A stretch of 58,667 nt of DNA, from assembly GCA_041737755.1 (NCBI GenBank), contig JBGSRE010000491.1:1-58667 (forward strand), read 5' to 3'. Positions 10,948 through 29,981 of the stretch are shown here, one piece after another. The DNA is from Oligoflexus sp. GTDB taxonomy: Bacteria > Bdellovibrionota_B > Oligoflexia > Oligoflexales > Oligoflexaceae. How positions within the stretch are numbered: the stretch's first letter is position 1; each line of letters starts with the position of its first letter. Made by a program: the position numbers and the translations under genes. The notes under the pieces were generated by a model that was given only the letters and a program-made list of their open reading frames with translations, was not told where the DNA came from and ran no database searches.

Positions 10948-10964
10948 CGCAAAAATGAGGCCAA
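10948..10964 (-). promoter_or_regulatory. Putative sigma-54 -24/-12 promoter of the tra operon
   Basis: Minus strand reads TTGGCCTCATTTTTGCG (TGGC-N7-TTGC, GG-N10-GC), about 55 bp before the first tra start codon. Confidence 0.65.
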
Positions 10965-11149
10965 CCGCTTGCAAACTTTTTTTTGATCCCATTTCAGAAT
11001 TGGTCCTAAATTCTTCGTTTCTGCTCTTGGCCTGCTTTTTGCCTGTAATTAATTGGGTTTTAGTGAGTGGCTTTATCTGAAATTTGGCAAAAACCCTGAA
11101 TCTCTCGTGGATTTGAGCATGGTGCTTTGAGTGGCTGGTATGAGCGGTT

Positions 11150-11189
11150 TTCACGGAGTTCCGGACAATGGTTCCCGGGTTTCCGGACA
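11150..11189. promoter_or_regulatory. Paired 18-bp motifs, putative enhancer (UAS) sites
   Basis: TTCACGGAGTTCCGGACA (11150-11167) and TTCCCGGGTTTCCGGACA (11172-11189); the same motif recurs twice at 19842-19891. Confidence 0.55.
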
Positions 11190-11217
11190 AATTCACTGAA
11201 ACCCAGAAAGGATGGCG

Positions 11218-12360
11218 ATGAAACATTTTGAACTTTCGAGGTCACTAGGACCCGATGAGCTCATTCGTAAGAACGACGTTTTTTCGAGTATTTGGCGCGA
11301 CATATTTCAACGGGCGCACCTTGAAAAGACGTCAGATATTCATATCGAAACTTTCTCAAACATGATCAGAGTGAGGATTCGTAAAAATGGCGAACTCATG
11401 GTCGTTAAGGAGTTTACCGAGGCCGAACTTCTCGATCAGTTGATGATCCGCCTCAAGGAAATCTCTGGGCTTGATATCTCAACTCGCGATGAAACACAGG
11501 ATAGCGCCTTCGAACTCAGGTCTTTTGGAAGCCGGTATCGTGCCGCACTTTGCCCTGCGGTTTATGGAGAAACAATCGTCCTGCGAGTCATCCAAGAGAG
11601 CAACCTCCCCAAGTTGGCTGATTGTAGGTTATCGCCCCAGGCTGAAACAGACCTGCGTCACGCTCTCAATCAGGAGAAAGGCTTTATCTGTATCACTGGC
11701 CCTACGGGATCAGGCAAATCAACAACGCTGCAGGCCTGTCTTATGGAGACTGACCGCCTTGCCAAAAAGGTGATCACCCTAGAGGATCCGGTTGAGCGCA
11801 AACTTCCCGATGTGGTTCAGCAGCAAATCAGTTCCAAGCTGACCTGGGCTAAAGGCATCAAGATCGCTATGAGGCAAGATCCAGACATTATACTGGTCGG
11901 TGAAATTCGCGATCCAGAATCTGCAGCACTTGCCCTGCAGGCGGCGCAAACAGGGCATTTAGTGCTGTCTACTCTGCATACTAATGATGTCCCAGGTATA
12001 GTTGATCGGCTCATCGGGCTTGGGGTAGATCGGCATGTTTTAGCCGAAAATCTGCTCTTTATTTCAGCGCAGCGCCTCCTGCCCACTCTATGCCTATCGT
12101 GCAGAATCCAATCCTCGGAGGATCGGTATTCTCGTGGTCCAGGCTGCAGTGTCTGCGACGAACAAGGGCTGCTGGGACGGACAGCAGTTCTTGAATATGC
12201 GATTCATCCAACCCCAGACAGTATTCTGCAATTTTCTCGCGATAGTTTTATTCGATTCCAGCTCAAACAATCGCTTCGGGAAGAAACCCAGAAATTGGTG
12301 CGGGCTGGATTAGTAGATTGGAGCTATCTTGAACGCTACACCGATGATGCAGACGCATAA
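11218..12360 (+). CDS. GspE/PulE/PilB-family secretion ATPase
   Basis: 'SDIHIE', GPTGSGKST, 'TLEDPVE', 'MRQDPDIILVGEIRD', 'TGHLVLSTLHTND' and a tetra-Cys CLSC...CSVC motif. Confidence 0.92.
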   Translation: MKHFELSRSLGPDELIRKNDVFSSIWRDIFQRAHLEKTSDIHIETFSNMIRVRIRKNGELMVVKEFTEAELLDQLMIRLKEISGLDISTRDETQDSAFELRSFGSRYRAALCPAVYGETIVLRVIQESNLPKLADCRLSPQAETDLRHALNQEKGFICITGPTGSGKSTTLQACLMETDRLAKKVITLEDPVERKLPDVVQQQISSKLTWAKGIKIAMRQDPDIILVGEIRDPESAALALQAAQTGHLVLSTLHTNDVPGIVDRLIGLGVDRHVLAENLLFISAQRLLPTLCLSCRIQSSEDRYSRGPGCSVCDEQGLLGRTAVLEYAIHPTPDSILQFSRDSFIRFQLKQSLREETQKLVRAGLVDWSYLERYTDDADA

Positions 12361-12384
12361 AATGCACAAAAAATCAACCAAAAT

Positions 12385-12516
12385 TAAGTCAGACTTAGCC
12401 TCTTATTTATTGCGTCAAAAACTTGACAACAAAACCTTGAGTTGGCGACAATGAATAAGTAATTCGATGATAAGAAATGCGTTTCGCGACGCGGATCATA
12501 ATTTAACTCAGACTTA
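12385..12516. promoter_or_regulatory. parA promoter flanked by two operator-like palindromes
   Basis: TAAGTCAGACTTA (12385-12397) and TAACTCAGACTTA (12504-12516, abutting the RBS) flank TTGACA (12423)-N18-GACAAT. Confidence 0.45.
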
Positions 12517-12527
12517 GGAGGGTTGAA

Positions 12528-13406
12528 GTGAAGAACAGTAAGACAAGTATTCTTGCTATTTCTAACCAAAAGGGCGGCGTTGGTAAAACCACGACGGTTA
12601 TCTCACTTGCTGCAGCATTTGCAAAACTCGGTCATAAAGTCTTGATCGTCGACTTCGACTTTCAAGGGAATGCCTCTGATTGGCTCGGCATCCAGGAAAA
12701 AGCTATCGAAGAAAAAAGAACTGTAACCTATGCAATTCAACGCAATCTCACCATTGGTGACGTAAGACTATCAACATCCAACCCTGATATCGACGTTATA
12801 GCTTCAGACATTTCCCTGAATTGGGAAACACGAAAACTCAATGGTACTTCGCGACAATTCCAGATTCTTAAGCGGATTTTGGACTGCCCCGAGGCAAATG
12901 ACTATAGCATCATCCTCGTTGATACCCACCCCTCCATCGATCCACTATTTGAAAGTGTTATGAGCTTTGCACACTACTATGTCGTGCCAGTTTTTGCCGA
13001 AAAACACCCCTACTCCGGCCTTGAGTTTCTAACGAAATCGATCGAACAAATCAAAGAGGACGTCAATCCTATGCTGCATTTTCTAGGGATTCTAGTCACT
13101 CGCATGAACAAAGACAACGCGACCCACAAACGCTTTGAAGCAAAAATGCGAGAACTAGAGGAGTCCACAAAAATTCCTGTCCTTAAGACTGTCATTCCAA
13201 GTTCTGAGGCTATTCCTGGCGCTTCGGCTGCACAACAGTCCATTCTTGAATATAATCCTCAATTACCAGTTTCTTCTGCGTATATGGAGTTGGCCAAAGA
13301 GCTTATTCCACTCCTTAAGGGGAAAAGAACAGGTCGACCTCAAAAATCGCCTCAAGTGGAACGTGTGACCCCGTACAAAGAGTTTTTTAAAGATGCTTCG
13401 TTTTAA
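12528..13406 (+). CDS. parA: ParA-family partition ATPase
   Basis: Deviant Walker A NQKGGVGKTT, 'DFDFQGNAS', 'ILVDTHP'. Confidence 0.95.
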   Translation: MKNSKTSILAISNQKGGVGKTTTVISLAAAFAKLGHKVLIVDFDFQGNASDWLGIQEKAIEEKRTVTYAIQRNLTIGDVRLSTSNPDIDVIASDISLNWETRKLNGTSRQFQILKRILDCPEANDYSIILVDTHPSIDPLFESVMSFAHYYVVPVFAEKHPYSGLEFLTKSIEQIKEDVNPMLHFLGILVTRMNKDNATHKRFEAKMRELEESTKIPVLKTVIPSSEAIPGASAAQQSILEYNPQLPVSSAYMELAKELIPLLKGKRTGRPQKSPQVERVTPYKEFFKDASF

Positions 13407-13442
13407 GAACCAAATAACAACTAACAGGAGGACAAATCCACG

Positions 13443-14402
13443 ATGAAGAGCAATAAAGATATAAAGCCGGGAAATGTTCGATCACGCCCAAATATTGCGG
13501 ATAGTATTGATGCCACAGCTGTGCGAATTGCTGCAAGTTTGAATAAGCAGAACGAAAATCAAGAGTGGGATCAAGAACGGATTGAAAAATTAAAGAGCTG
13601 TGATGGCAAGGTTGGCGAAATTCCTATCAGCATGATCAAAACCAACCAGAACATTAGAAAACGAATTGATGAGAATGATCCTGCTTTCATCGCTCTCGTT
13701 GAGTCTATTCGCACCCATGGGATACTTCAGCCCCCTATCGTTACAGTAGTTACCAATGAGAACGAAACTTCGTCAATCCTCCTAGTTGGTGGCGAGCGAC
13801 GACTTAGAGCAGCACTAGCCGCCGGACATACCGCGCTCAACTGTATGGTGCGGATTTTTGATAATCAATCAACTCGCCTCACAGCTTCTGTCGCAGAAAA
13901 CATGAATCGCAGGGATCTCGAATGTCTTGATATCGGTCAATGCTTTTTGTCCCTCAGTGAACAAGGCTATAAGTATTCAGAGATCGAGAGACTCTTCAAT
14001 CGTGACGAAAGAACCATCGGTCGATACATCAAAATTGCCAAATGGCCTGAATCTGTCCAAGAAGCGATTCGCAATCACGAAGAGAAGTTCTCGACTCGAT
14101 ACCTCTTTTCCTTGGCATCAAGAAAAATATCTGATGCGGATCTTGAAAGCGAAATAAATGCAAAAATCAGCGGCGAAAAGACAAATGAGCCCAAAGGGAA
14201 CAATGGCAAGCAATCATCTCAGGCAAAACGTATCTCACGCTACTTTGAGAACAAAAATCTTGGGCAATATGAGCAAGATCTGATCTACGGCGCTCTAGTC
14301 GAGCTTGGGTTCCTCAGTCCGGAGGCAGTTCAAGGCATCCCGTCGAGGCCTATCAAGGGTGCATCTGCCGAAAAGGCCGCGGAGGTGGTTGATGTTCTCT
14401 AG
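13443..14402 (+). CDS. parB: ParB/RepB/Spo0J partition protein
   Basis: 'SIRTHGILQPPIV', 'GGERRLRA', 'AENMNRRDL' and an HTH. Confidence 0.93.
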   Translation: MKSNKDIKPGNVRSRPNIADSIDATAVRIAASLNKQNENQEWDQERIEKLKSCDGKVGEIPISMIKTNQNIRKRIDENDPAFIALVESIRTHGILQPPIVTVVTNENETSSILLVGGERRLRAALAAGHTALNCMVRIFDNQSTRLTASVAENMNRRDLECLDIGQCFLSLSEQGYKYSEIERLFNRDERTIGRYIKIAKWPESVQEAIRNHEEKFSTRYLFSLASRKISDADLESEINAKISGEKTNEPKGNNGKQSSQAKRISRYFENKNLGQYEQDLIYGALVELGFLSPEAVQGIPSRPIKGASAEKAAEVVDVL

Positions 14403-14417
14403 TCACTTCGCAGGAGT

Positions 14418-14589
14418 GGACACGCGTGTCCCCTTTTATAGGCAGGTAGGAGCTACCCTTGACCGGACACGCGTGTCCGGTTGTAGATTGTTAAAATTGA
14501 CTTGGTTTACGAGTTCTACCGGACACGCGTGTCCGGTCCTGTGCTGTCGCTCTTATCAATAGGTTTAAAAGAGGACACACGTGTCCGGT
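14418..14589. repeat. Four palindromic parS-like sites (ACC)GGACACGCGTGTCC(GGT)
   Basis: Copies at 14418-14431, 14462-14481, 14518-14537 and 14573-14589 (the last has one mismatch), immediately after parB. Confidence 0.8.
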
Positions 14590-14604
14590 AGAGGAGAGGC
14601 AAAA

Positions 14605-16236
14605 GTGGAAATAGAAGTGCCATCATCTGAGAATGAATATATTAAAGATCAGGACCAACCTTGTCGCTATTGCCTGGACGAGGGGATTGTGCTTTCCACG
14701 GCTGAACGACATGTGACTGCCACTCATTGTTCCTCTTGCAGCACTAGTTGGGATATCCGAAAAGAACGAGAGAGCTCTGCCGAAATTATTAACCATGCTC
14801 AAATACCAAGCGGATTTTTCCAAGCAAAAACGGCTTCGGAAATTCCTTCTTTTGTAGAAGAGTGGTTTTCCAAACTCACCTCGACTTCTAAAAAAGCAGA
14901 TCAATCCCTTTACCTTTGTGGTCCATCAGGATCAGGAAAAACCTTCGCGGCTATAGCTTTAATGTTTCGCTTTGCAAAGCGGGGACAGCTCGTTCGCTAT
15001 ATTGATTGCTCTGAATATTTGATGGACCGGCGCGCAAGTTATAGCACAAAACATATTGGTGGCATGGGTGATGCATTTGCAAAGAAAACCGAAAACGATC
15101 GGTGGTCTATCGCTCGATACGATGTCGTAGTATTGGACAACATTGGCGTTGGCACATCCAATGATTGGACCAAAGAGCAATATGACCACTTAATAGATAC
15201 TCGCCAGACATCAGGCAAACCAACCATTTACATTTCTAACTATGCCGACGATCTTCAATTCACAATTGAGGGCAAAAAGTTGACCGGCCTTATAGGCCAA
15301 AGAGCAGCGAATCGCATCAATCAATCAGCTATGCTTTATTTGAAGGAGCGCACAGCGGCATCATCCATTCCACCTGCAGCACTATTTGAACCTGTAAAGC
15401 CGCCTCGTACCCTAGCCACGAATGAGACCACTTTTCTTCATATTTGGGCAAGGGAAGGGTTATTCAGCATGGTCTCCAAAAAGGAACGATCAACCCTAAC
15501 CGCTAAGTCAAAGGTCAATCCTAGAGAGGTGATTGAACTGCCTTTCCCCAAACCGCGCGAATATATCAGTTGGTCGGGTTTCCATGTGGTTTTGCAGGGA
15601 CCAGTGGTCGATTATGAGGATGCGAATGTCTTAGCTGCACTCATGCGAATCTACCATGATATCGGTAGCTGCGGCACAGTATGCACCTCGTTAGGCAATA
15701 TCCTGAGAGAGCTCGGATTAGATACCCACTCTGGTGCCAAACAAAAGCAGCTAAAACGATCTATAGTCCGACTCGCCGAATCGAGAATCACTATTAGAAC
15801 GATCCCCCAAGACTCCAAAGTTAAGTCTGAAGAAATGATGTGGATCGGGGGCTTTCTTGAAAATGTCATTTATGAAGGCAGCACCAAAAGTCGTAAGGTC
15901 ACTATAAAATTTAATGACGCCATGGCTCCCTTTTACCAAAAAAAGCTACTCGTATTGTTGCCTCTAGATACCCTGACCAGCCTCTCCCCCTATGCTCAAG
16001 GTATTTATCGCTTCCTGCTGGGGCACCGCGATAGCTACAAGTTCATCAGTTTGGCTCGCTGGCGAGAAATTCTAGCCATTAACCCCAACGTACAGGAAAA
16101 AAGCTTTAAAGACTGTATGCGACTGGCCATCAAAGAACTTGTTACCCGTAACCTGCTAACGGAACACTCAAATATTGATGCTAATGGCATTTTTCATTCC
16201 TACATCGTTCGTTCCGTCCCAGAGCAAGCCCATTAG
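14605..16236 (+). CDS. Replication initiator: Zn-finger + DnaC/IstB-like AAA+ ATPase fused to a TrfA-like Rep domain
   Basis: CRYC..CSSC; GPSGSGKT; 'VVVLDNIG...DWTKEQYDHLIDTR...KPTIYISN'. The C-half 'GPVVDYEDANVLAALM...SLGNILRELG...LKRSIVRL' is TrfA-like. Adjacent to iterons. GTG 14605 follows RBS GAGGAG. Confidence 0.72.
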   Translation: MEIEVPSSENEYIKDQDQPCRYCLDEGIVLSTAERHVTATHCSSCSTSWDIRKERESSAEIINHAQIPSGFFQAKTASEIPSFVEEWFSKLTSTSKKADQSLYLCGPSGSGKTFAAIALMFRFAKRGQLVRYIDCSEYLMDRRASYSTKHIGGMGDAFAKKTENDRWSIARYDVVVLDNIGVGTSNDWTKEQYDHLIDTRQTSGKPTIYISNYADDLQFTIEGKKLTGLIGQRAANRINQSAMLYLKERTAASSIPPAALFEPVKPPRTLATNETTFLHIWAREGLFSMVSKKERSTLTAKSKVNPREVIELPFPKPREYISWSGFHVVLQGPVVDYEDANVLAALMRIYHDIGSCGTVCTSLGNILRELGLDTHSGAKQKQLKRSIVRLAESRITIRTIPQDSKVKSEEMMWIGGFLENVIYEGSTKSRKVTIKFNDAMAPFYQKKLLVLLPLDTLTSLSPYAQGIYRFLLGHRDSYKFISLARWREILAINPNVQEKSFKDCMRLAIKELVTRNLLTEHSNIDANGIFHSYIVRSVPEQAH

Positions 16237-16260
16237 CTTCCGATCCTCCACATGATAGGC

Positions 16261-16612
16261 ATTTCGTCTTTTCACCCGCTCTATCTTCAAGATTGAAGAA
16301 CTCAAACCTTTTTCTGAAAATTTTGAGTTAAAATTCATAGATTTGACTGCTCCTCTCCAGCAAGGAACTGAAGCGATCCCTATTGCGTTGCTGCTGTTCC
16401 GAAAGATAACTGCCAAAATGATTTCGTCTTTTCACCCGCTGATTTCGTCTTTTCACCCGCTGATTTCGTCTTTTCACCCGCTGATTTCGTCTTTTCACCC
16501 GCTGATTTCGTCTTTTCACCCGCTTGATTTCGTCTTTTCACCCGCTTGATTTCGTCTTTTCACCCGCTTGATTTCGTCTTTTCACCCGCTTGATTTCGTC
16601 TTTTCACCCGCT
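16261..16612 (+). repeat. Iteron array (oriV), unit ATTTCGTCTTTTCACCCGCT
   Basis: One isolated copy at 16261-16280 and nine tandem identical copies at 16421-16612 (21-bp then 22-bp period), directly after the rep gene. Confidence 0.9.
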
Positions 16613-16635
16613 CGTTCTCAGGACAAAACAACGAG

Positions 16636-16644
16636 TTATCCACA
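16636..16644 (+). promoter_or_regulatory. DnaA box
   Basis: Perfect TTATCCACA 23 bp after the last iteron; a one-mismatch inverted box lies at 16802-16810. Confidence 0.8.
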
Positions 16645-16724
16645 CGTACCATCAAGTTACATACCTGATTTGTTTGTGATATATGGTTGCGCCTATTTTT
16701 TGGGCTCTACGGTAAAACGGGTCT

Positions 16725-16759
16725 AGAGAGGTTATAGAGAGATTAAAAGAGAGATTAAA
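16725..16759. repeat. Three 11-12-bp A-rich repeats, putative DNA-unwinding element
   Basis: AGAGAGGTTAT AGAGAGATTAAA AGAGAGATTAAA, downstream of the iterons and DnaA box. Confidence 0.5.
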
Positions 16760-16804
16760 AGATACCCCTATAGAGCTCAATCAGCGGCAAGATAGGGGAT
16801 TTGT

Positions 16805-16865
16805 GGATATATATTTATCCATCTTGACATCAGATCACCATCTCTTTATGGATACACATGTATCC
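16805..16865. promoter_or_regulatory. Two GGATA-N6-TATCC operators around a TTGACA -35 box
   Basis: GGATATATATTTATCC (16805-16820), TTGACA (16824-16829) and GGATACACATGTATCC (16850-16865), upstream of the 94-aa ORF. Confidence 0.5.
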
Positions 16866-16891
16866 GCGTTCGTTCCCTTGATGGAGTCGCA

Positions 16892-17176
16892 ATGTCATAT
16901 TATTCATCGTACACCAAGTTTCATGTCACCATTGGCGTCGAAGCAACAGCTCGTCGCACGACAGTCTCCATCGAGACCTATCTTGCTGAAGCACTAGCAC
17001 TCAAACTTGGAAAGCAGCCTCAGACACCAGAAGCTCATGCTGCAGTCAGGAAATGGCTCCAGGAGCAGCAGGATAAAGAAGGCGCCACTCTACAGCCATA
17101 CCTGATCAAGAGAGCTTTAGTTTTGGAAATTATGGCTCCAGATATATCCAAATCTTGGTGGAACAGCCGGCAGTAG
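16892..17176 (+). CDS. Small putative RHH-type regulator
   Basis: RBS GGAG; 'RRTTVSIETYLAEALA' beta-helix pattern; operator pair upstream. Confidence 0.5.
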   Translation: MSYYSSYTKFHVTIGVEATARRTTVSIETYLAEALALKLGKQPQTPEAHAAVRKWLQEQQDKEGATLQPYLIKRALVLEIMAPDISKSWWNSRQ

Positions 17177-17266
17177 GGATAGACAACCTACGCTGAAGCT
17201 CCAAATAGAACGCGATTGTGTAGCTTCTTTGACGTAGAAAAACACCTGAAAAAAATGGAGGCACAT

Positions 17267-17989: not shown

Positions 17990-17994
17990 GCATC

Positions 17995-19666: not shown

Positions 19667-19693
19667 ATACACACCCTATGCACCTGTTGTGCT
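19667..19693 (-). other. oriT, MOB_F-type nic site (predicted nick between 19671 and 19670)
   Basis: Minus strand reads AGCACAACAGGTGCATAGGGTGT^GTAT: a GCAC/GTGC hairpin then a nic core like R388 (GGTGCGTATTGTCT^A) and F (TGCGTGGGGTGT^G). It lies upstream of the RHH-T4CP-relaxase genes. Confidence 0.75.
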
Positions 19694-19841
19694 GGGTCCG
19701 CGTCTAGATCAGCTTCAATCGACTACAATCATTATGAAAAGAAGTATACGGTCGTATACGCAAGGAACCATGAGTCACCCTCAATGCTTCGATATTTTAT
19801 CCAAAACTATAGCTGCGCAGAGTAGACCGTGAGCTTGAGCA

Positions 19842-19891
19842 TTCCCGGCATTCCGGTAATCCAAGCACAAAAATTCACGGATATCCGGACA
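19842..19891. promoter_or_regulatory. Paired 18-bp motifs, putative enhancer (UAS) sites
   Basis: TTCCCGGCATTCCGGTAA (19842-19859) and TTCACGGATATCCGGACA (19874-19891); the latter matches 11150-11167 at 16 of 18 positions. Confidence 0.55.
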
Positions 19892-19953: not shown

Positions 19954-19970
19954 TTGGATCGCAAATTGCC
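19954..19970 (+). promoter_or_regulatory. Putative sigma-54 -24/-12 promoter of the mob operon
   Basis: TTGGATCGCAAATTGCC (GG-N10-GC with TTGC), about 50 bp before ATG 20018. Confidence 0.5.
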
Positions 19971-20017
19971 TCTCTATTATTGGTCAATGTTGAATCTCTT
20001 TTGGTGTGGGGGCGGGA

Positions 20018-20476
20018 ATGGCAAATGAAATAAAAACGCAGCGACGCGGTCGAGCACAGATAACCAGTGGACTCGTTCCGGTGACCTTACGGATATCAGC
20101 TAAAGATCGAGACAATTTTGAGCATCTCGCCAGGGTCCATGGATCGAATCTTTCGGAGTACCTGAGGGCGCTTCTTGATGAGTATGCATCCAAGGCATCA
20201 TTTGGGCACCGACTCGATGATATTGGCGCGCAGCTCAATGCCATCTCGGAGAAGGTCCATCAGGTTTCCGGGCAAGAGCAGGTGTCGACGACAAAATCAG
20301 AGAGCCACGCCGACCAAACTCTGCATGAAATCAGTAAGCAGTTGGCAGCCACGACCACAAGTGTCGAGCAGTTCACAACTTTGATCCAAAGTAGCTTCGA
20401 ACAGTTGTTTGATGCATTTTTCAAACTTCAAACCTTTATTGAGCACATGAGCAAAGCACAAGGGGGTCGTCGATGA
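20018..20476 (+). CDS. RHH relaxosome accessory protein (TrwA-like)
   Basis: 'VPVTLRISAKDRDNFEHLARVHGSNLSEYLRALL' RHH plus coiled coil; lies between oriT and the T4CP gene. Confidence 0.7.
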   Translation: MANEIKTQRRGRAQITSGLVPVTLRISAKDRDNFEHLARVHGSNLSEYLRALLDEYASKASFGHRLDDIGAQLNAISEKVHQVSGQEQVSTTKSESHADQTLHEISKQLAATTTSVEQFTTLIQSSFEQLFDAFFKLQTFIEHMSKAQGGRR

Positions 20477-22434
20477 AGCAGAGATTCATAAGCGCGGGTA
20501 TGCTTGCTTCATGTTTGGGAATTGGGCTCTTTTTAATCCTCTCCAAGAGGATCAATGTCGCGACATTTCTCTTCGCTCCTGACAGGATCGCTTTAATCCA
20601 ACAGGCCATAAGCAAAAAGGTGCCATCAGTTGTAGCTACTGGCGGCCTGACTGTTAGTCTCGTGTTGCTCATAATTGCGCTCACGGTCCTGATCGAACTT
20701 GAAATGCGAAAAAAGGACCAGAGTCCAGCGACATTGATTTCGCATTTGGTCTTTGTATCAATCGGTCTTGTCGCAGCACAAATCATACTCAATGTCGTCG
20801 CATCAATGATTTTGCGGCAGCGCATTCCACTGAATGGATTTGGTGTTGTTGCTATACCGCTAGCTGTGCTCGGATTCTATGCACCAATCCGGATTTGGTT
20901 CTGGCAGCGACCAACCTCTGGGGATGACTCTCTGAACCGTGGCATCAAGGTTATATTTGATCCTGCTCGTAGCGCGCAAATTCTGAGGCGCAAAGCCGTA
21001 TCAATAGGAGCAACCGGCCTTGCCATTCATGATGACGTAATATTGCCAATTGGTCAGGAGACCAAACATACACTCCTCATAGCGGCTCCAGGGGGCGGCA
21101 AGACTCAGGTTATATACCCCTTGATTGAGCGAATTAGAGCACGCGGTGACGCTATGCTCCTTTATGACTTTAAGGGAGATTTTACGGCCGCCTTTGGCGA
21201 GGATCTCGGGGTCTTAATCCTAAGCCCTTTCGATGCACGTGGTTATGGATGGGATATTGCCGCTGATGTAACCACAGACATAAAAGCGATGGAGTTCGCA
21301 GCCTGCCTCATGCCTGACCTGGATTCCAAAGAGCCCTTCTTCAAAAAAGCTGCGCAAGATTTGTTAACGGGGGTGATCACAAAACTGATTAGGGAGAAGC
21401 AAGGGGTTTGGGGAATTGGTGATCTTGTGAGCCTTCTAACCAATAAGTCAGATATTGTTGCCTCTTGCCAACAATATCGACCCGCAGCGTTGAGTGCGCT
21501 TGGTCCCGTTGATGAGAAGCAAGCAGCCGGGGTATTTGGAGAGCTGAGAACCGGGTCCATTCAGCTTGAATATTTGGCGAGAGCTTGGCCATCGACTCAG
21601 AAAAAGATCTCACTTACCAAATGGGTGCGAAATCCGGAACTCCGTCAGGAGCAGCCGATCATCATGCTCCGCGGGCATCAACAGTACCGGCGCCTTGATG
21701 GTTTTTTAACCTCGTTGGTCTGCGCACTCGTGATCAAAGAAGCCCTATCACTCCCCGACTCCTATGAAAGGCGGATCTGGGCGGTCTTAGATGAGTTTGG
21801 TAACTTGCCGCGAATTGAGGGCATAGATGCGCTTTTAACCGGGGTCCGTTCAAAGGGGGTGCGGATCGTAGCCGCGATTCAAGATATTGCGCAAATAGAG
21901 GAAACCTATTCAAGGTCTTTTGCGCAAACTTTTTTTAACTGCTTTGGGACTATTCTCGCGGGGTTATGCTCGGGGTCAACGGCTCGTTACCTGTCTGACT
22001 CTTTCGGCAAAAATAAAATCGACCGTCTTCAACACAGTAAGTCTCGTAAAAAGGGCGCCCAGGGGATGGGTGCTGGAACCTCAATTTCAGAAACTCAACA
22101 AAGCGTGATCGAGAATGCCCTTATTGATACCGATTTTTCAAACCTAGAACCACCTAACATGAATACCCCTGCATCGTTTTGGCTTCGAATCTCTGGCTGG
22201 CCTATCGGGCGGCTCAGTTATCCCGTGCGGCCTCTGCCTAATAAATACCCGTCTCATATCGAACCGGATTGGTTAAAAGACCCAGCTGTTTCTACGAACA
22301 CCGTGCACAGCGATCACGAGAACGAAGTCGAAGATGATAGTTTGCCTGAATCGGTGGTCCCGCTCGTGCGTGAGTACCGGCCCTTTGGAGCCAAGGCCGA
22401 CGGCGGTATTGAATCACCTAGAAGCGGGGGGTAA
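20473..22434 (+). CDS. trwB: Type IV coupling protein (TrwB/TraD family)
   Basis: N-terminal TM helices; 'HTLLIAAPGGGKT', 'YDFKGDF', 'PFDARG', 'LDEFGNLPRI', 'QDIAQI'. Confidence 0.92.
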   Translation: MKQRFISAGMLASCLGIGLFLILSKRINVATFLFAPDRIALIQQAISKKVPSVVATGGLTVSLVLLIIALTVLIELEMRKKDQSPATLISHLVFVSIGLVAAQIILNVVASMILRQRIPLNGFGVVAIPLAVLGFYAPIRIWFWQRPTSGDDSLNRGIKVIFDPARSAQILRRKAVSIGATGLAIHDDVILPIGQETKHTLLIAAPGGGKTQVIYPLIERIRARGDAMLLYDFKGDFTAAFGEDLGVLILSPFDARGYGWDIAADVTTDIKAMEFAACLMPDLDSKEPFFKKAAQDLLTGVITKLIREKQGVWGIGDLVSLLTNKSDIVASCQQYRPAALSALGPVDEKQAAGVFGELRTGSIQLEYLARAWPSTQKKISLTKWVRNPELRQEQPIIMLRGHQQYRRLDGFLTSLVCALVIKEALSLPDSYERRIWAVLDEFGNLPRIEGIDALLTGVRSKGVRIVAAIQDIAQIEETYSRSFAQTFFNCFGTILAGLCSGSTARYLSDSFGKNKIDRLQHSKSRKKGAQGMGAGTSISETQQSVIENALIDTDFSNLEPPNMNTPASFWLRISGWPIGRLSYPVRPLPNKYPSHIEPDWLKDPAVSTNTVHSDHENEVEDDSLPESVVPLVREYRPFGAKADGGIESPRSGG

Positions 22435-22437
22435 CCC

Positions 22438-25164
22438 ATGCTAACCATCAAGAAAATATCAGGATCACAGGCGGCAGCTGATTATTATGCCAAGTACGCT
22501 CAGGAAAAGGGTGAGGCTCAAGGTTACTGGATTGATAACAGCGGTCAGCTCGTAGCTGGGGGGGCTCATGTCGATCCGCAGGCCATGCTCTATATGCTCA
22601 AAGGTTATTCTCCCGATGGCAAGGCAGCTCTTTGCCAAAACCCCGGTGAAGATCACCATCCTGGTTGGGATCTGACTTTCTCACCACCAAAAAGTGTTTC
22701 CATAGCCTGGTCAAATGCATCGGACGATCTTCGGATCGACATTGAATCAGCCCATCGTGAAGCAGTTGCTCGGGCTCTTGGGTTTATCAATGACGAGGCC
22801 ACATGTGTTCGGGTGGGCAAGGGGGGAGCTGGGGTCGAGCAGGCACGAATGGTCGCAGCTCTCTTTCAGCACTCATCCAACAGGGCTGAGGAGCCGCAGC
22901 TCCATACCCACGCAATCGTTTTTAACGTGGCACAAACCAAATCTGACGGGAAGTGGCGGACTCTACACCCTTACCCTATCTATCGAGCCTACATGGCCGC
23001 TGGAGCCATTTATAAGGCCGAGATGGCCGATCGTATGAAGGCATTGGGTTTTGAAACCCACAGGACCAAAGACAGTTTCGAATTGTCGCAAGTTCCTGCG
23101 GCTGTTTGTGATGCTCAGAGTTCTCGGTCCAAGGCGATCGAAGCGGCCTTGGAGCGTCAAGGACAGACCAGATCGAGTGCTTCGGCGGTGACAAAGGAGC
23201 TCTTGGCCCTTGATACCCGTGCTGAGAAGGGTAGTGAACGAGTGGTCCGCGACTTCGATCGTTGGCAAAAAGAAAACTCTGCATTTGGATTTGGACCAAC
23301 TGAGCAATCCGTGGTTTTGGATCTTCAAGGTCCGAATCAAGAGCAGACGCCATTCAATGGCAAGGATCATCGCGAGGTTATGAGCGAAAGCCTACAAAAG
23401 CTAACGGCAAGATCATCCACGTTCAACGACTTTGATCTTTATAGAGCTGCGGCCGAGGCAGCCATCACCGAGACGGGTGCTGATACAGCGTTGGCTATGG
23501 CACGAGAGGCGAAAAAAGACGGAGAGGTAGTTGCTCTTGGTCCAAATAGGTTCAATGAAAATCGCTATAGTACACAGGAAATGGCAAAAATTGAGCAGGA
23601 GAATATGTTAATCGTCGCTGAAAGGCGGCAAGAAAATCAACACCCGGTGCCTGCTAACACCATAATTCAGGTTCTTGAAAAGCGACCAACGATACAAAGT
23701 GAGCAGGCAGAGGCCCTAAGGCATGTGGTGGGCGGTAAAGATGGAGTCACTTTTATTGAAGGCGATGCAGGAACGGGCAAGAGTTTCTTAATGTCAGCTG
23801 TGAGGGAGGCATATGAAGCCAGTGGTTACGAGGTTCGCGGCATCTCTTTTACCAACAAGGCTGCAAAAAATCTCGAAGAGGGCAGCGGGATCAAAGATTG
23901 CCAGAGTGTTGACTCACTCCTGATTGAACAGCGCAAAGGGGAAAACCCCCTCCATGGTCGGTCCGTGCTCGTTCTCGACGAAGCTGGGATGTTGGATAGT
24001 CGCAAGATGCGTGAGCTGATGCGTCATTGCAAAGACAGCCATACCAAATTGATTTGTATTGGCGATCAAAAGCAGATCCAACCAATTGCAGCTGGGCAGG
24101 CTTTTGGCTCCATGAAGCGCGAGTTCGGATCAAAACGATTGACCGAAATTATGCGGCAAAAGGATGAATGGCTAAAAACAGCCATCAAAGACTTCGCTGA
24201 AGGGCGTGTTCGACAAGGGATCGATGAATTTGATCAGCGAGATGCCTTGCAAATTTCAAAGAATCGCAATGAGGCTCGACAAGCTATTATCTCTGAGTGG
24301 AAAAATCAGATAGATGCGAGTGGCCTCGCAAAGGCTCCGCTCATGGTGGTGACTACCAATGCTGAAGTCGACCATTTGAATCTTCTCGCGCGTGATCAGT
24401 TGGTAAAAAGCGGTGTTTTAGAGCAGGGTCTTGTTATTGATACAGATCATGGTCAACGATGCTTCGCGGCAGGAGACCGAATAGTCTTCACCTCAAATTT
24501 TAAAAAAAAAGGTATCTACAATTCAGGTGTCGCAACTATTGAAAAGATAAAAAAGCCACTAAACACCAGTAGTTCTAGGACAATAACCGTAAAAACCGAA
24601 AACGGACGTCGGGTTAAGTTCGACCCCTCAACCTTCAAATCATTTCGCCATGCATACGCCATAACCACCCATAAGTCGCAGGGGTCCACTGTTGATCGGG
24701 TTTTGGTTCTCGTTGATGGCACATTGATGGACCGGGAAAAATTCTACGTTGCGGTTTCTCGGGGGCGTGAAAAACCAGCCGTGTTTGTTGATCAGCAAAC
24801 GCTGGGAGGTGTGCCAATGGATGAACGGCAGCGATTAGTAGCCCTTCCGATTGAAGAGCGATCCAAAGAGGAGCGGGAGCTATTTAAGTTGTCACTTGGG
24901 CGCATGTTGGGAGCGTCCCATGAAAAGGATACGTCACAAGACTATTCAATCACCAAGAGTCAATTGCGCGATGCCATCAAATCTAAACCAGAGAAGGAAT
25001 TGACTGCATGGGATGGCTTTAAACTTAAAGTTACTGAGCAGTTACGCAATATTCACATAAGGCTTAGTGCGGCATTTGGGGATCGTTCACCCGAAGGTAA
25101 ATCTGGAGCAGATACTGGCATGTCTGCGGACAAATCGGCGAAAGATATGTCCTATGACCGTTGA
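22438..25164 (+). CDS. trwC: MOB_F relaxase-helicase (TrwC/TraI family)
   Basis: 'AADYY', 'GWDLTFSPPKSVS', HUH 'HSSNRAEEPQLHTHAIVFN'; RecD-like helicase motifs GDAGTGKS, 'LDEAGM', 'YAITTHKSQGST'. Confidence 0.95.
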   Translation: MLTIKKISGSQAAADYYAKYAQEKGEAQGYWIDNSGQLVAGGAHVDPQAMLYMLKGYSPDGKAALCQNPGEDHHPGWDLTFSPPKSVSIAWSNASDDLRIDIESAHREAVARALGFINDEATCVRVGKGGAGVEQARMVAALFQHSSNRAEEPQLHTHAIVFNVAQTKSDGKWRTLHPYPIYRAYMAAGAIYKAEMADRMKALGFETHRTKDSFELSQVPAAVCDAQSSRSKAIEAALERQGQTRSSASAVTKELLALDTRAEKGSERVVRDFDRWQKENSAFGFGPTEQSVVLDLQGPNQEQTPFNGKDHREVMSESLQKLTARSSTFNDFDLYRAAAEAAITETGADTALAMAREAKKDGEVVALGPNRFNENRYSTQEMAKIEQENMLIVAERRQENQHPVPANTIIQVLEKRPTIQSEQAEALRHVVGGKDGVTFIEGDAGTGKSFLMSAVREAYEASGYEVRGISFTNKAAKNLEEGSGIKDCQSVDSLLIEQRKGENPLHGRSVLVLDEAGMLDSRKMRELMRHCKDSHTKLICIGDQKQIQPIAAGQAFGSMKREFGSKRLTEIMRQKDEWLKTAIKDFAEGRVRQGIDEFDQRDALQISKNRNEARQAIISEWKNQIDASGLAKAPLMVVTTNAEVDHLNLLARDQLVKSGVLEQGLVIDTDHGQRCFAAGDRIVFTSNFKKKGIYNSGVATIEKIKKPLNTSSSRTITVKTENGRRVKFDPSTFKSFRHAYAITTHKSQGSTVDRVLVLVDGTLMDREKFYVAVSRGREKPAVFVDQQTLGGVPMDERQRLVALPIEERSKEERELFKLSLGRMLGASHEKDTSQDYSITKSQLRDAIKSKPEKELTAWDGFKLKVTEQLRNIHIRLSAAFGDRSPEGKSGADTGMSADKSAKDMSYDR

Positions 25165-25239
25165 AAGTATAACAGTTATGCTTTTGAATTGAGCATTGGA
25201 CACCAAAAAGCTATTATTCGGGAGGTTCAGTAGGGATCA

Positions 25240-25539
25240 ATGGTTGGAAATTTTGAGGGAAGCATGGTTGAAGGAATTGAGACTCAACGGCAAGGAGCTA
25301 GGCCCCAGGCAAATAAAGTTCAAAGCGGCAAGCGAACCAAACCCCGCCGTGAGGTTCCAGATGTGTCCTCCAGTGAAGCAATCACCAAGGTAAACCTGGA
25401 CCTGTCAGCGACAATGCTACAGGAGCTTGATCAGCTGGCGTTGCTTCTAAATGTTTCCCGGCAAGCTGTTATCAAGAATTTTGTCAAAGACGGGCTTGAT
25501 CGCCATTTTCTCGGTCAGAGAGCTCGCGATAAAGGTTAA
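25240..25539 (+). CDS. CopG/RHH protein resembling BrnA-type antitoxins
   Basis: 'KVNLDLSATMLQELDQLALLLNVSRQAVIK'; start uncertain. Confidence 0.6.
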   Translation: MVGNFEGSMVEGIETQRQGARPQANKVQSGKRTKPRREVPDVSSSEAITKVNLDLSATMLQELDQLALLLNVSRQAVIKNFVKDGLDRHFLGQRARDKG

Positions 25540-25568
25540 GGATAAAATATGGGCCGGCACTTTGAGGT

Positions 25569-26405
25569 ATGACTATGAAACGCTACTTAATCGTGAATGC
25601 AGATGACTGCGGCTTTGATACACCAACCACAGACGGGGTGTTTGATGCGCATCTCAACGGGATCGTGTCGTCGACATCTGTTGTTGTCAATTTTGATGGT
25701 TTTACCTATGCAGCCAAGCGCCTTCTTGAAACTCCAACTTTAAGAGCTGGGGTTCATCTCAATTTCTATCAGGGCAAGCCAGTTCTAGAAGCAGCAAAAA
25801 TACCAAGTTTGATCAATCCACTGATCGGAGAGTTTGATCCAATAATCCAAAAATCATGGGAAATTAGTCCGATTCACCTAAAGGCTGAATTTAGAGCTCA
25901 AATCGAAAAATTTCTAGCAGCTGGTCTCACCCCCACACATCTTGATAACCATAGGCCCGAAATTTACCTGGATGTTCAGTTATTTAAGGTTGTCATTGAG
26001 CTAGCCGAGGAATATCGACTACCGATTCGTATGCCGTTTGATAAGTGTTTTGCACGAGACGATCAAAAGCTCACATCAATGACCGGTGTACCTTGGGAGA
26101 TCGTTCAAGCCAGAGGTAAGCTGATTCGCGACGAAGTCGTAAAGCGTGGAATCTCGTTTCCAGACTATTTTTGCTATGAGTTTACAACTAAAGGACGCAC
26201 CATCGAGTCCTTATGTGAAATTTTAATGAGTCTGCCAGAGGGAATTTCTGAGATATGCACGCACCCTGGATATAGTGGTGATCGCCAAATTCAAGAACTT
26301 AATGTGCTACTAAGCCCCAAGGCAAAAGATGCCGTAAGCGCAATGGATATAAATCTTTCCTCATTTGAAGTTGCTCAAGGGCATTCGGGAGGAAACTGCG
26401 TTTGA
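25569..26405 (+). CDS. ChbG/HpnK/YdjC-family carbohydrate deacetylase
   Basis: 'LIVNADDCG', 'GVHLN', 'PTHLDNH', 'EICTHPG'. Confidence 0.9.
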   Translation: MTMKRYLIVNADDCGFDTPTTDGVFDAHLNGIVSSTSVVVNFDGFTYAAKRLLETPTLRAGVHLNFYQGKPVLEAAKIPSLINPLIGEFDPIIQKSWEISPIHLKAEFRAQIEKFLAAGLTPTHLDNHRPEIYLDVQLFKVVIELAEEYRLPIRMPFDKCFARDDQKLTSMTGVPWEIVQARGKLIRDEVVKRGISFPDYFCYEFTTKGRTIESLCEILMSLPEGISEICTHPGYSGDRQIQELNVLLSPKAKDAVSAMDINLSSFEVAQGHSGGNCV

Positions 26406-28513
26406 TGAATTGGGTTTCCATCCTTGTGACAAGCCTTACTCTCCTCATTTTCAGTGGGGTTGGAGCGGCATCTACGATTAGGCTCGAAAAGGGTTGGGAA
26501 ATCTCGTGGGAATCAAAAGCCTTCCCGCAAGGTTGGACGCCTTGGCAAAGTGTGGATCTGCCATGTATTCCTACATTCAAAGTAGATGGTAACAAGATCG
26601 CCGCTCGAATTCATTTGCCACCCTTCGAATCACAGGATCCGAGCATACTTATAAAACTGCTCGATCAACCATTTGTGATGTCAGTTGATGGAAACGAGAT
26701 CTATCGATTTGGTGAGATGAGTGATGGTCACAGAAAATTTCTTGGCCTTCCTTGGCATATTGTGTCTCTACCAGCAGAATTTCAGGGTAAAGACCTTGTT
26801 TTCAATGTTCGCAGATCATCTGATCCCAAGTCTGGCCTGTGTGACGAAGTCATACTCGGATCGCGGGCTGAGCACATCGCGAACATGATAACAGAAAATT
26901 TTGATATTATTGTCTTAGCCACGGTTTCACTTATGGCTGCAATGATCAATCTTATCATTGCTCTCTCGATGAGAAAGGCGAAGCCTTACCTAGCCTTTTC
27001 TCTCTTCGCATCTGCTATTGGAACATGGGTATTTTCGAATTCGAGCAATCAGATCAAGCTATTTTTAATTCCAGACGCAGTGTTTTGGGCTTGGTTGGAC
27101 CTAACATCACTCTACTTGATTCCGGCCTTTGTTCTTCTTTTTGTTTATCAGGTATTTGGCAATCCTCCTAAAAAGATCCTTCTTTGGCTGTCAATTGTGC
27201 ATTTGGCATATGCTGCCGGCGCGACTATTTTAGTTGGATATGGAGCAATTGACCCTAAGACTCCGCTATTTCCGTATAACTGTCTTGTCCCTGTGACGCT
27301 CGTGGTGCTTACAGTTTATACCATCCTACTCATTGCTCGAAAACAGGCAGATGCTGGCTTTATCGGAGCTGGTCTCATTCTTATGATTGGTTTTGCCATC
27401 CATGACTTGATGGTTGGATTGCAGATACTGCCTTGGACGCGGCATACCTTGCAGTTCGGTCTTACGTCAATGCTTATACCATTTTCTGTTATTGTCGTAA
27501 GGCGCGTGCATCAGCTTTTAGACATGCAAAGACAAGCGGAGTTTCAGTCGATAAAAGACCGGCAACGAGCAGAAATTATGCAAAATCTTGCTCATGATAT
27601 CAAAAATCCTCTCGCGGTTTTCGAGCTGATTGCTTCCACGAAGACCTGGGAAGAGTTTTTAGACTGGAAATTAGAGATGGGACGGGCTGTAGAACGAATC
27701 CATGGAATTATTGCTGGATTTAGAAAAGACGCAGACACAACACCACTGAAAATCGAAATAGGCTTCATTGATTTGCAGGCAATCGCCTCAGATGCGATGA
27801 AAACTCTTGGCTCAGAACGCCTCGCGATCAAGGCGGATTCTGCAACTGACGGCGTTGCCTTGCATATAGATCGGGTAGCGATCGAACGTACTTTATTCAA
27901 CTTGATCACAAATGCTGCTGAAGCCGGATCATCGACTATTTTGATTAGCTCCCGTGTTACCGGGGGAGATCTTACTCTATCGGTTGCCGATAATGGACCA
28001 GGTGTCCCGCCCGAAATTAAGCAAAGTCTTTTTCATCGCGGGCAATCTTTTGGCAAGATTGGAGGTCAAGGTATTGGTCTTTTTAACGTCAAAAGTATTG
28101 TGTGTGGCCATGGTGGAACTGTCGAATATATTAGAACAAATGACCTATCAATTTTTCAAATCAGACTACCTGACACTGTGGAAATCAAAAATGATCCTTT
28201 GCTAGATGACGAGATTAATCAATCGGATCAACCAAAGCAGCAGTCGGTCCTTATTTCCATTCTGGATATTGGGCGAAAAGAAGAGGTTTTGAGTGCTTTG
28301 GCTAGTTACCCATTAAAGATTTATTTAGCAGTGCATGGAGATCAAGTTCCTAGCTTGGTTTTTACCGACGACCATGAATTAATTGAAAAATATTTGGCAA
28401 TGGGCATTCCCATTATGATGGAAAATGGAAAAGACGCACCAGAGAAGATTGCCAAACAGATTGTCCGCAGGGTGAGGGGACGGTCAGAGCATAAGCAAGA
28501 AAGGATTGATTAA
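26402..28513 (+). CDS. Sensor histidine kinase with an extracellular beta-rich domain and 7TM-DISM-like membrane domain
   Basis: Signal peptide; about 7 TM helices; H-box 'LAHDIKNPL', N-box 'NLITNA', G boxes 'DNGPG' and 'GQGIGL'. Confidence 0.88.
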   Translation: MMNWVSILVTSLTLLIFSGVGAASTIRLEKGWEISWESKAFPQGWTPWQSVDLPCIPTFKVDGNKIAARIHLPPFESQDPSILIKLLDQPFVMSVDGNEIYRFGEMSDGHRKFLGLPWHIVSLPAEFQGKDLVFNVRRSSDPKSGLCDEVILGSRAEHIANMITENFDIIVLATVSLMAAMINLIIALSMRKAKPYLAFSLFASAIGTWVFSNSSNQIKLFLIPDAVFWAWLDLTSLYLIPAFVLLFVYQVFGNPPKKILLWLSIVHLAYAAGATILVGYGAIDPKTPLFPYNCLVPVTLVVLTVYTILLIARKQADAGFIGAGLILMIGFAIHDLMVGLQILPWTRHTLQFGLTSMLIPFSVIVVRRVHQLLDMQRQAEFQSIKDRQRAEIMQNLAHDIKNPLAVFELIASTKTWEEFLDWKLEMGRAVERIHGIIAGFRKDADTTPLKIEIGFIDLQAIASDAMKTLGSERLAIKADSATDGVALHIDRVAIERTLFNLITNAAEAGSSTILISSRVTGGDLTLSVADNGPGVPPEIKQSLFHRGQSFGKIGGQGIGLFNVKSIVCGHGGTVEYIRTNDLSIFQIRLPDTVEIKNDPLLDDEINQSDQPKQQSVLISILDIGRKEEVLSALASYPLKIYLAVHGDQVPSLVFTDDHELIEKYLAMGIPIMMENGKDAPEKIAKQIVRRVRGRSEHKQERID

Positions 28514-29981
28514 CATGAGTGAACAATCATCGAAAACAAATAGATCAATTTTGATCGTTGAAGACGATGGATCTCAGCTCGGACGGTATCTAGAGATGGC
28601 GCGCGAGGCAGGTTTGGAAGCACGCGGCGCTCTCAATGATAAAGATGCTCTTAATCAGCTGGCAAATATCAGCTTTCAATATGTGCTGACCGACATCCAC
28701 CTTAATGGGCAGTTAAACTACAACGGATTTGAAGGGATCAAGATTCTCCGCTATTTGAAGGAGAATATGCCTGAAGTCATTCCGTTAGCTATGACCTCAG
28801 ATCCAAAGATTGAGACCTATAGGGAGGTGTTGAGCGAGGGGGCAGAATACCTTTTTCGCAAGCCGATCATTAGCAAAGATGAGCTCTTGATTCATCTCAA
28901 CGCTGCCCGAAGTCGGCGACTCATGGGCTTTCTGGTTAAGCGCCGACCAAAGGAGGCAGGCCTTCCAGAGAGAATTAGACAGCACTGCCCCGATGGTGTC
29001 GTTATTGCTGAAGCAATTCGAGAAACTGTCCGTAAAGTTGCTGCCCATGGTCGAGTGCCAGTGGTCATTTTTGGCGAAACCGGCACTGGCAAAGAAGAAG
29101 TTGCGAAGCTCATCCATCGCCGTCGATTTGAGATCAGCGGTCCTCTTCCATTTATCCCGGTTAACTGCGCTAATCTTCGTGGCGAGACAGCAATATCGTC
29201 TATATTTGGCCACAAGAAGGGTTCATTTACAGGAGCAGATCAAACGACCAATGGCTTTGTAGGGGAGGCTGATGGTGGAATTCTGTTTTTGGATGAAATA
29301 CATGCGCTTTCTATTGACTGCCAGCAAAGGCTTTTGAGGGTTTTGCAAGATGGAACTTATTTTCGATTGGGCGACACCAAAGAGCTCCACTCATACTTTC
29401 AAGTGATCGTGGCAACGACTCGTGATCTTGATGATGAGACTGATGCAGGTCGTTTCCTGCTTGATTTGCGCACTCGATTGATCGGTTTTGACATCAGCTT
29501 GAGCCCGCTTAGAGAGAGAAAAGAGGACCTGCCCGTCTTGGTAGACCTCTGCTTTGCCCGCCATGGGGTCAATGTTCCTGAGAGTGAAGTCCAGCGCATT
29601 GCCAAAAAATGTGGGGAATATTATTGGCGAGGTAATATCCGGCAGCTGTTTATGGTGCTGCAAGCCCTAATTGTTGAAGCTGAAGGGAATGAGCAGGAAA
29701 TTCGGGCCGAAAATCTTCCAGTGGTTAAACATATGTTGCCTCCTGGGGAAGAGAATATTTCGACTAAAGCTCTAGGAATTCAGGGAATACCTGCCGATAG
29801 TGGTCGAATTATTGAAGGTGCCTTACGAAACGATCAACCGCTGCATGATACGGTGGCCCTGTTTGAAAAGTTCGTTATTCAGGCGGCGATGGCAAGGCAC
29901 GCGAAACTTGGCGATGTCGCAAGTTCACTGGGTATTGGGCGAAGTACCCTCGATGAAAAGCGGAAGAAATATGGTATTTAA
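28506..29981 (+). CDS. Sigma-54-dependent response regulator (NtrC-type enhancer-binding protein)
   Basis: Receiver domain (IVEDD..LTD..KP), GETGTGKE, GSFTGA, 'LFLDEI', 'WRGNIRQL' and a Fis-type HTH. Confidence 0.95.
   Translation: MINMSEQSSKTNRSILIVEDDGSQLGRYLEMAREAGLEARGALNDKDALNQLANISFQYVLTDIHLNGQLNYNGFEGIKILRYLKENMPEVIPLAMTSDPKIETYREVLSEGAEYLFRKPIISKDELLIHLNAARSRRLMGFLVKRRPKEAGLPERIRQHCPDGVVIAEAIRETVRKVAAHGRVPVVIFGETGTGKEEVAKLIHRRRFEISGPLPFIPVNCANLRGETAISSIFGHKKGSFTGADQTTNGFVGEADGGILFLDEIHALSIDCQQRLLRVLQDGTYFRLGDTKELHSYFQVIVATTRDLDDETDAGRFLLDLRTRLIGFDISLSPLRERKEDLPVLVDLCFARHGVNVPESEVQRIAKKCGEYYWRGNIRQLFMVLQALIVEAEGNEQEIRAENLPVVKHMLPPGEENISTKALGIQGIPADSGRIIEGALRNDQPLHDTVALFEKFVIQAAMARHAKLGDVASSLGIGRSTLDEKRKKYGI

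Follow-up and report, generated by a model that had tools for sequence, protein, structure and literature searches.

Candidate sigma-54-type, enhancer-controlled switch for the conjugation genes of an Oligoflexus plasmid

The window analysed here is the whole of contig JBGSRE010000491.1 (C331; 58,667 nucleotides) from an 86%-complete Oligoflexus sp. bin, to which the plasmid is putatively assigned. It carries a conjugation system with three transfer units, namely the tra operon, a separate transfer ATPase gene and the mob operon, each headed by a sigma-54-type promoter. Judged from sequence, sigma-54 control of these genes is very likely, and the three promoters are probably switched on together by a plasmid-encoded kinase and an NtrC-type activator acting through two pairs of an 18-bp motif (18-mer). 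Much of the comparison rests on a related plasmid in a genome of another family (G038). The features concerned are as follows.

1137..10894, minus strand: F-like type IV secretion (tra) operon, with TraC/TraB-like hits and a gene order matching distant relatives; runs across the contig ends
10949..10964, minus strand: sigma-54-type promoter heading the tra operon, with transcription predicted to begin near 10937; one spacer change in the G038:C142 copy
11027..11042, plus strand: second, divergent sigma-54-type promoter, heading the ATPase gene; predicted start ~11054
11150..11189, no strand: 18-mer pair 1, a candidate shared enhancer with its two copies 22 bp apart, at 11150 and 11172
11212..12360, plus strand: GspE/PilB-type transfer ATPase (PF00437), outside the tra operon
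19842..19891, no strand: 18-mer pair 2 (copies at 19842 and 19874, 32 bp apart), centres at ~-130 and -98 from the predicted mob start
19954..19969, plus strand: sigma-54-type promoter heading the mob operon, with transcription predicted to begin near 19981
20018..25164, plus strand: mobA (NikA-like ribbon-helix-helix, RHH), TrwB-like coupling protein and TrwC (MOBF) relaxase
26402..28513, plus strand: histidine kinase with a 7TMR-DISM membrane region
28506..29981, plus strand: NtrC-type enhancer-binding protein with receiver, AAA+ domain with GSFTGA loop, and Fis-type helix-turn-helix (HTH)

Sigma-54-type promoters at the transfer units

An earlier, sequence-only reading of this DNA had placed a GG-N10-GC promoter before each of two transfer operons. 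Both sites are present, at 10949-10964 (-) and 19954-19969 (+), and both operons stand as described; a third site, at 11027-11042 (+) before the ATPase gene, had been overlooked. In mirror image it agrees with the tra site at 14/16 positions. The bare YTGG-N8-TTGC pattern occurs at chance frequency in the window (seven seen vs 5.2 expected). Support for the proposed sigma-54-type control comes instead from the position of the sites, from anchors kept while spacer and flanks change, from an rpoN gene in the putatively assigned bin (G000:C979, E 2e-65) and from the -24 GG, which has been lost precisely in the copy whose downstream ATPase gene is truncated. As to position, a sigma-54-type site heads 3/3 transfer units vs 0/16 other operon heads, the latter chosen by us from the map of open reading frames (ORFs); the shuffle P values are 0.008, 0.034 and 0.009. 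When the window was scanned with a sigma-54 matrix approximating the consensus, the three sites ranked 2, 4 and 6 among 49. A same-strand sigma-70-like match was sought at the three transfer heads, and none was found. The arrangement of GG at -24 and GC at -12, ten bases apart, is common to three sites in the window, three in G038 and one at the metagenome locus L108.

A TraC search of the phylum gave matches in 32/131 genomes, one of them, in G038, at 94% identity. G038 retains all three promoters. At its mob promoter the spacer and flanks differ while TTGG and TTGC are unchanged (anchors 8/8, p 0.04; p 0.02 in a further test of the mob anchors). The tra/ATPase control region is present there in two copies, with a pair in each, and each copy retains only the promoter of its intact neighbour. 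Thus, in the copy before the tra operon (G038:C142) the pair and the tra promoter are retained, whereas the ATPase promoter has lost its -24 GG and the ATPase gene there is truncated. The copy before an intact ATPase gene (G038:C12) keeps only the pair and the ATPase promoter. Likewise, in contigs from four other runs only 1/36 motif and anchor positions varies, vs 31/155 of the others (p 0.006), and that single change is to the other permitted letter. A metagenome scan returned 13 loci, of which two were close (L107 and L108) and one had upstream DNA. L108 encodes a TrwB coupling protein at 61% and a MobA at 55% identity, and GG-N10-GC is present.

In seven distant loci the ATPase gene is the last of the tra operon; the enzyme thus belongs to the transfer machinery, and in this plasmid its gene has left the operon. 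The window ATPase is 47% identical to the operon-terminal copy of a distant relative. The sigma-54 site is absent from 7/7 distant tra heads with upstream DNA (best score 7.9 vs 12.0). By eye, six of the seven carry TTGAC(A/T), a -35-like hexamer, and a strict sigma-70 pattern matched none of them. An activator was also sought in the stretches around six of these seven tra operons, without a match. At the tra heads of L033, L034, L037, L042 and L045, palindromes overlap the TTGAC(A/T) hexamer beside an apparent divergent small regulator gene; repressor-held control is the likely ancestral state at these heads. The same tra operon in relatives that lack the sigma-54 site makes a before-and-after comparison available.

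The 18-mer pairs and their likely binder

The four 18-mers of the earlier reading were recovered at 11150, 11172, 19842 and 19874, with 16/18 positions shared by the best pair. Searching the plasmid gave four matches vs 0.65 expected (0/100 shuffles), a figure that is partly circular as the pattern was drawn from these sites; among the best matches in the other 1042 contigs of the bin, no tandem copy was present. The sites stand in pairs, and the window copies are only moderate dyads (10-14/18 positions self-complementary). The pair is the only element found to be common to the promoter regions. Pair 1 lies ~222 and 244 bp upstream of the predicted tra start and ~105 and 127 bp downstream of the predicted ATPase start, and pair 2 adjoins an oriT-like block. 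A 13-bp inverted repeat (11054-11066 / 11193-11205) encloses pair 1, extending from the predicted ATPase start to just before the ribosome site, and could fold within the leader RNA.

Conservation of the motif in relatives, which the earlier reading had proposed to examine, is borne out, as both 18-mers and promoter anchors are kept in G038, in the metagenome variants and, with altered arms, in L108. Against G038, 25/28 positions of the mob motif arms are conserved vs 179/278 elsewhere (p 0.004); for the tra motif arms the figures are 25/28 (p 0.04) and, against G038:C12, 26/28 (p 0.02). Three extra motif matches in G038 fall in coding-like sequence. In L108 the pair consists of near-perfect dyads with the same core and different outer arms, and the offsets from nic (171, 203 and 284) are identical to those in the window. 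Eleven matches to the oriT core with <=1 mismatch were found, five of them exact; the other six are without such a promoter layout.

The plasmid's NtrC-type activator is the likely binder of the 18-mers and would control the transfer genes through them. As the sequence-only reading had it, the kinase (26402-28513) and the activator (28506-29981) lie on the relaxase strand; the activator matches Sigma54_activat, Response_reg and HTH_8. The activator has the receiver acidic pair, phospho-Asp, Thr and Lys, the Walker A and B motifs and a Fis-type HTH. Its loop reads GSFTGA in the window and GAFTGA in G038 and most clade members, and GSFTGA is listed among activation-competent variants in PMC4641369. 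In the R-finger region the second Arg is invariant, and in all the alignments Leu or Pro takes the place of the first. The activator of G038 is 85% identical (HTH 40/45) and co-inherited with the transfer genes, the identities of the other proteins to G038 being 91% for TrwB, 87% for TrwC, 94% for TraC, 72% for Rep, 61% for ParB and 43% for the kinase. Close activators number 14 (62-92% identical), and named relatives come from Oligoflexales and allied records, which makes an Oligoflexia host probable; a search of viral contigs gave no close relative. In a quick tree, made with the careful search unfinished, the activator belongs to a clade of 13 proteins that is separate from the host paralogues (Shimodaira-Hasegawa-like approximate likelihood ratio test, SH-aLRT, 99); 2/16 'plasmidclade' rows are known to be plasmid-borne. 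The wider Oligoflexia activator subfamily occurs in 42/131 genomes at E<=1e-90, with up to 10 copies per genome, and its members are often last in kinase operons; those aligned are without the first R-finger arginine.

Related arrangements occur elsewhere. In G054:C12, a stand-alone activator gene of the family is headed by a sigma-54 site of its own, together with a tandem TGTCC-N8-GGACA-like pair, which beats 200/200 shuffles and 37/37 control promoters. In an unrelated conjugative element with an activator of a different subfamily (G059:C17:45700-47500, L353), one 18-bp dyad stands before both sigma-54-type promoters, that of the activator and that of the transfer operon, and 3/4 exact genome matches lie there. 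The coupling protein of that element has a C-terminal TraU-like match. Among 14 stretches of another type IV secretion system (T4SS) lineage, several of which may not include the operon head, four have an intergenic sigma-54-like site and one, G059:C17, a clear dyad set. G034:C137 combines a related activator with a sigma-54-like site at the transfer region, and a shared dyad was not found there. Single-site scoring of family promoters gave six regions at p<=0.03 among several dozen, near chance.

The remaining candidate sites and binders are these.

8980..9261, minus strand: small MetJ-like, probably RHH gene inside the tra operon; rival 18-mer binder
12528..14402, plus strand: ParA and ParB
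14418..14586, no strand: four 14-bp palindromes, parS-like, with seven bases common with the 18-mer right arm; other sequence in G038
19669..19684, no strand: oriT nic-like core, unchanged in 6/6 aligned loci, presumably similar to MOBF nic sites
near 19744-19759, no strand: GTATAC repeats 3' of the nic-like core, likely MobA sites
25169..25217, plus strand: BrnTA-type operator-like palindrome and weak sigma-70-like site (9/12), kept after the relaxase in G038
25240..25539, plus strand: orphan BrnA-like RHH gene with no toxin partner here (NF047399, E 7e-9, below cut-off)

Several results count against the activator as reader of the 18-mers, or limit what conservation can say. The tra and ATPase promoter anchors are kept at 8/8 positions each and are not significant alone (p 0.09 and p 0.11). 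Only two plasmids carry activator and sites on one DNA, and they may not be independent, because an identical 141-bp contig end is common to both. Across 23 family activator loci, motif score and HTH similarity correlate with rho 0.30 (p 0.17); L291, which has the most similar HTH, shows no convincing pair, and 8/23 loci reach p<=0.05, with G054 alone beating all controls. The Arg of FREDL in NtrC1 has a catalytic role, and this activator family has Leu in its place. No good site of integration host factor (IHF) was found between enhancer and promoter, where only two-mismatch matches to the consensus were obtained. The nic-to-pair distance is conserved as well as the pair-to-promoter distance; therefore spacing cannot separate an enhancer from a relaxosome site. 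An orphan oriT in G033:C53 (L349:674-894) keeps the pair at nearly the same offsets with neither GG-N10-GC nor mobA, in a genome without a close activator; it may be a remnant, or the pair may function in the relaxosome. Finally, there are three proteins of RHH type on the plasmid, and one of these is particular to the tra operon of this lineage.

These last points bear on an alternative that we consider unlikely, in which the promoters are sigma-54-dependent and a plasmid RHH protein uses the 18-mers as operators or relaxosome sites, the activator using other sites or acting from solution. The RHH protein would be that of ORF 8980-9261 or, with less likelihood, MobA or the BrnA-like protein. 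TraY of the F plasmid, which acts at both oriT and the tra promoter, provides the model; the 18-mer pair occurs at both places in the window, its variation not tracking MobA. The orphan oriT would fit this alternative. So would ORF 8980 itself, which is MetJ-like in 10/30 atlas matches (score 0.92), has two helices in a low-confidence model, is 94% conserved in G038 and has no counterpart at that place in 6/6 distant tra operons. The window copies are also readable as 8-bp tandem boxes; the L108 copies, by contrast, are dyads. Around homologues of ORF 8980, 0/13 short loci (1.7-3.2 kb) contain an 18-mer-like site. MobA is disfavoured as binder, since its predicted DNA-binding strand is nearly unchanged in L108, as is the GTATAC repeat, although the 18-mer arms changed there; the BrnA-like protein is disfavoured as well, having a different operator of its own. 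Assigning the 18-mers to an RHH protein would leave the promoter regions without any other common element as enhancer. A repressor at pair 1 could block the ATPase promoter, which lies upstream of the pair; activator sites in a downstream position are, however, reported for a minority of sigma-54 promoters (PMC4641369).

An activator of the same family encoded by the host could also be imagined on the 18-mers, with the plasmid two-component pair as cargo or regulating only itself. The bin holds ~15 near-complete sigma-54 activator domains, including paralogues at 38-40% identity with a similar recognition helix, and the kinase and its neighbours are clearly exchangeable cargo. We nevertheless find this improbable, as no host regulon with the motif was found in the bin (86% complete, with uncertain plasmid binning), and the activator moves with the backbone, at 85% identity in a genome of another family and in a clade separate from the host paralogues. 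It is more improbable still that the GG-N10-GC sites are not sigma-54 promoters at all, being chance matches or sites of another protein such as ParB, with the transfer genes on undetected sigma-70 promoters. The chance frequency of the bare pattern and the seven bases common to parS and the 18-mer arm speak for it, as does the published activation of conjugation genes by ParB on NAH7 (PMC12421886). Conversely, the anchors are kept despite changed spacers in three lineages, and the -24 GG is lost solely where its gene is truncated. ParB was rejected as the 18-mer binder because G038 has another parS and a diverged ParB C-terminus while its 18-mer is unchanged. In this connection, the parS-like repeats and the C-terminal half of ParB have been exchanged between otherwise close plasmids (window 14418-14586 vs G038:C12:5745-5940).

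The sensing cassette and the rest of the plasmid

The sequence-only reading had also suggested positive feedback through co-transcription of the activator with mob. From mobA to the activator all genes point the same way, with little space between them, and no sequence resembling a terminator was found 3' of the relaxase gene. Such feedback is nevertheless not established, as a conserved sigma-70-like site and a BrnTA-type operator stand between relaxase and kinase cassette in both plasmids. Sigma-70-like matches in the post-relaxase region are at chance overall (15 vs 15.3); therefore only the conservation of this site counts. Over 12 bases, the 25169-25217 palindrome agrees with the sequence ahead of a BrnT/BrnA-like pair in another part of the bin, and on G000:C32 a neighbour of a BrnT-like gene is a 45% homologue of the BrnA-like gene. 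Since site, palindrome and orphan BrnA-like gene occur in both plasmids, feedback and a basal, self-limiting promoter of the sensing cassette appear equally likely. Retained without a toxin in both (25169-25539), the antitoxin and its operator-like palindrome may have been recruited to repress the sensing cassette.

The input module itself, on the protein comparison, has been swapped while activator and sites stayed, because the G038 kinase (43%) matches only over the kinase and C-terminal part and the neighbours differ: in the place of the YdjC-like gene, G038 has a hydrolase and a binding-protein-like gene.

In its gene content and ends the window reads as a nearly closed conjugative plasmid, because the gene for a 590-amino-acid ORF of a relative is divided between both window ends, with ~0.55 kb missing. 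It has genes for a relaxase, a coupling protein and a VirB4-type ATPase, an oriT-like site, and replicon and partition functions. Most channel genes are without a family match. A PLSDB search gave distant matches only, with the activator at ~32% identity and TraC at ~25%, the latter over 56% of its length against the best plasmids. Further features are listed below.

2645-5221, minus strand: TraC/VirB4-like, in the tra operon
5592-6911, minus strand: TraB/VirB10-like, in the tra operon
within 1137..10894, minus strand: first gene of the tra operon, thioredoxin-like, plus two small pilin-like genes
14581..16618, plus strand: Rep-like gene and 21-22-bp iteron-like repeats
25569..26405, plus strand: YdjC-like carbohydrate deacetylase, variable cargo of the sensing cassette
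56552..58534, minus strand: final tra operon gene in the plasmid, no Pfam family; in distant relatives the GspE-type ATPase follows directly

Nine tandem 21-22-bp repeats lie 3' of the Rep-like gene (16421-16618), with a lone copy at 16261, and G038 is similar. The cargo region (31178-56074) is rich in defence-like genes, including a STAND-type NTPase (1604 amino acids), AbiEi/AbiEii and a YhcG nuclease, together with Tn3 and two resolvases, a Z1-domain protein, a radical SAM gene and an Eco57I-type methylase. Orphan oriT-like blocks with the same nic core and no relaxase nearby occur in G033:C53, G033:C200 and G027:C41, one of them with an 18-mer pair; they are possible mobilisable elements using this plasmid family in trans.

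Proposed mechanism and comparison with known systems

In the mechanism we favour, host sigma-54 polymerase would wait at the -24/-12 sites. Once phosphorylated by the plasmid kinase, the NtrC-type activator, for which binding to the 18-mer pairs is predicted, would oligomerise from dimers at each pair and loop to the polymerase. Pair 1 would serve both divergent promoters, from upstream of tra and downstream of the ATPase promoter, and pair 2 would serve mob in a geometry like that of glnAp2. For the kinase cassette a separate basal promoter of sigma-70 type is probable, with the orphan BrnA-like repressor damping it; transcription running on from mob could contribute positive feedback, which the scheme does not require. 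With an exchangeable sensor, different plasmids would answer different cues, and for this plasmid the 7TMR-DISM and YdjC domains prompt the guess of a sugar-type cue.

Because sigma-54 promoters are silent until an ATP-driven activator acts, such an arrangement would keep horizontal transfer very tightly off until a signal turns it on, in contrast to the repressor, pheromone and quorum circuits of model plasmids. In a predatory-type lineage that has been little studied, gene flow would then be linked to an environmental sensor that can be exchanged. A wider reading seems to us evenly balanced between true and false. Mobile elements of Oligoflexia would repeatedly and independently have rewired conjugation, from repressor-held sigma-70 control to strict sigma-54 enhancers under an element-encoded two-component system with a swappable sensor. 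Here this would have involved cutting the ATPase from its operon and giving it a mirrored promoter and one shared enhancer, and the enhancer next to oriT may also form part of the transfer origin.

The regulatory components resemble the NtrB/NtrC system at E. coli glnAp2, which likewise pairs a kinase with a receiver-AAA+-HTH activator. The two glnAp2 enhancers are 32 bp apart at -140/-108 (PMC5159524), and the plasmid mob pair, at ~-130/-98, has the same spacing. NtrC differs in being chromosomal and directed at nitrogen metabolism, and the plasmid activator is ~32% identical to it; on the plasmid the activator would act on transfer genes, and one of the pairs is placed between divergent promoters. 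The closest published layout appears to be that of the type III secretion activator DVUA0100 on Desulfovibrio vulgaris pDV1. In PMC4641369 this plasmid-borne activator is assigned type III secretion operons in a regulon that is itself predicted, with two divergent sigma-54 promoters, a common predicted site and the activator gene inside a regulated operon. It differs in serving protein secretion, not DNA transfer, and in being a one-component activator.

With respect to conjugation, the plasmid resembles MOBF/F-like T4SS plasmids in its TrwC relaxase, TrwB-like coupling protein and TraC- and TraB-like proteins, and is unlike them in that its module includes a GspE/PilB-type ATPase and that most channel genes match no family. 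Element-encoded regulators co-ordinate pilus and relaxosome operons in F (TraJ/TraY), R388 (TrwA), IncC (AcaCD) and Ti (TraR). To our knowledge, and in the literature searched, no model element controls conjugation by a sigma-54 promoter together with an enhancer protein that is ATP-driven and has a kinase of its own. NAH7 (ParB; PMC12421886) and ICEclc also use an element-encoded regulator to co-ordinate transfer operons, and conjugation of ICEclc (RpoS/InrR) is reported to be RpoS-dependent (PMC5812530). A full-text literature search (sigma-54 with conjugation, and the host group) returned no report of sigma-54-driven conjugation genes; subscription journals lay mostly outside its coverage, so that absence is unproven. 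A search of PMC12316311 for conjugation terms gave no match.

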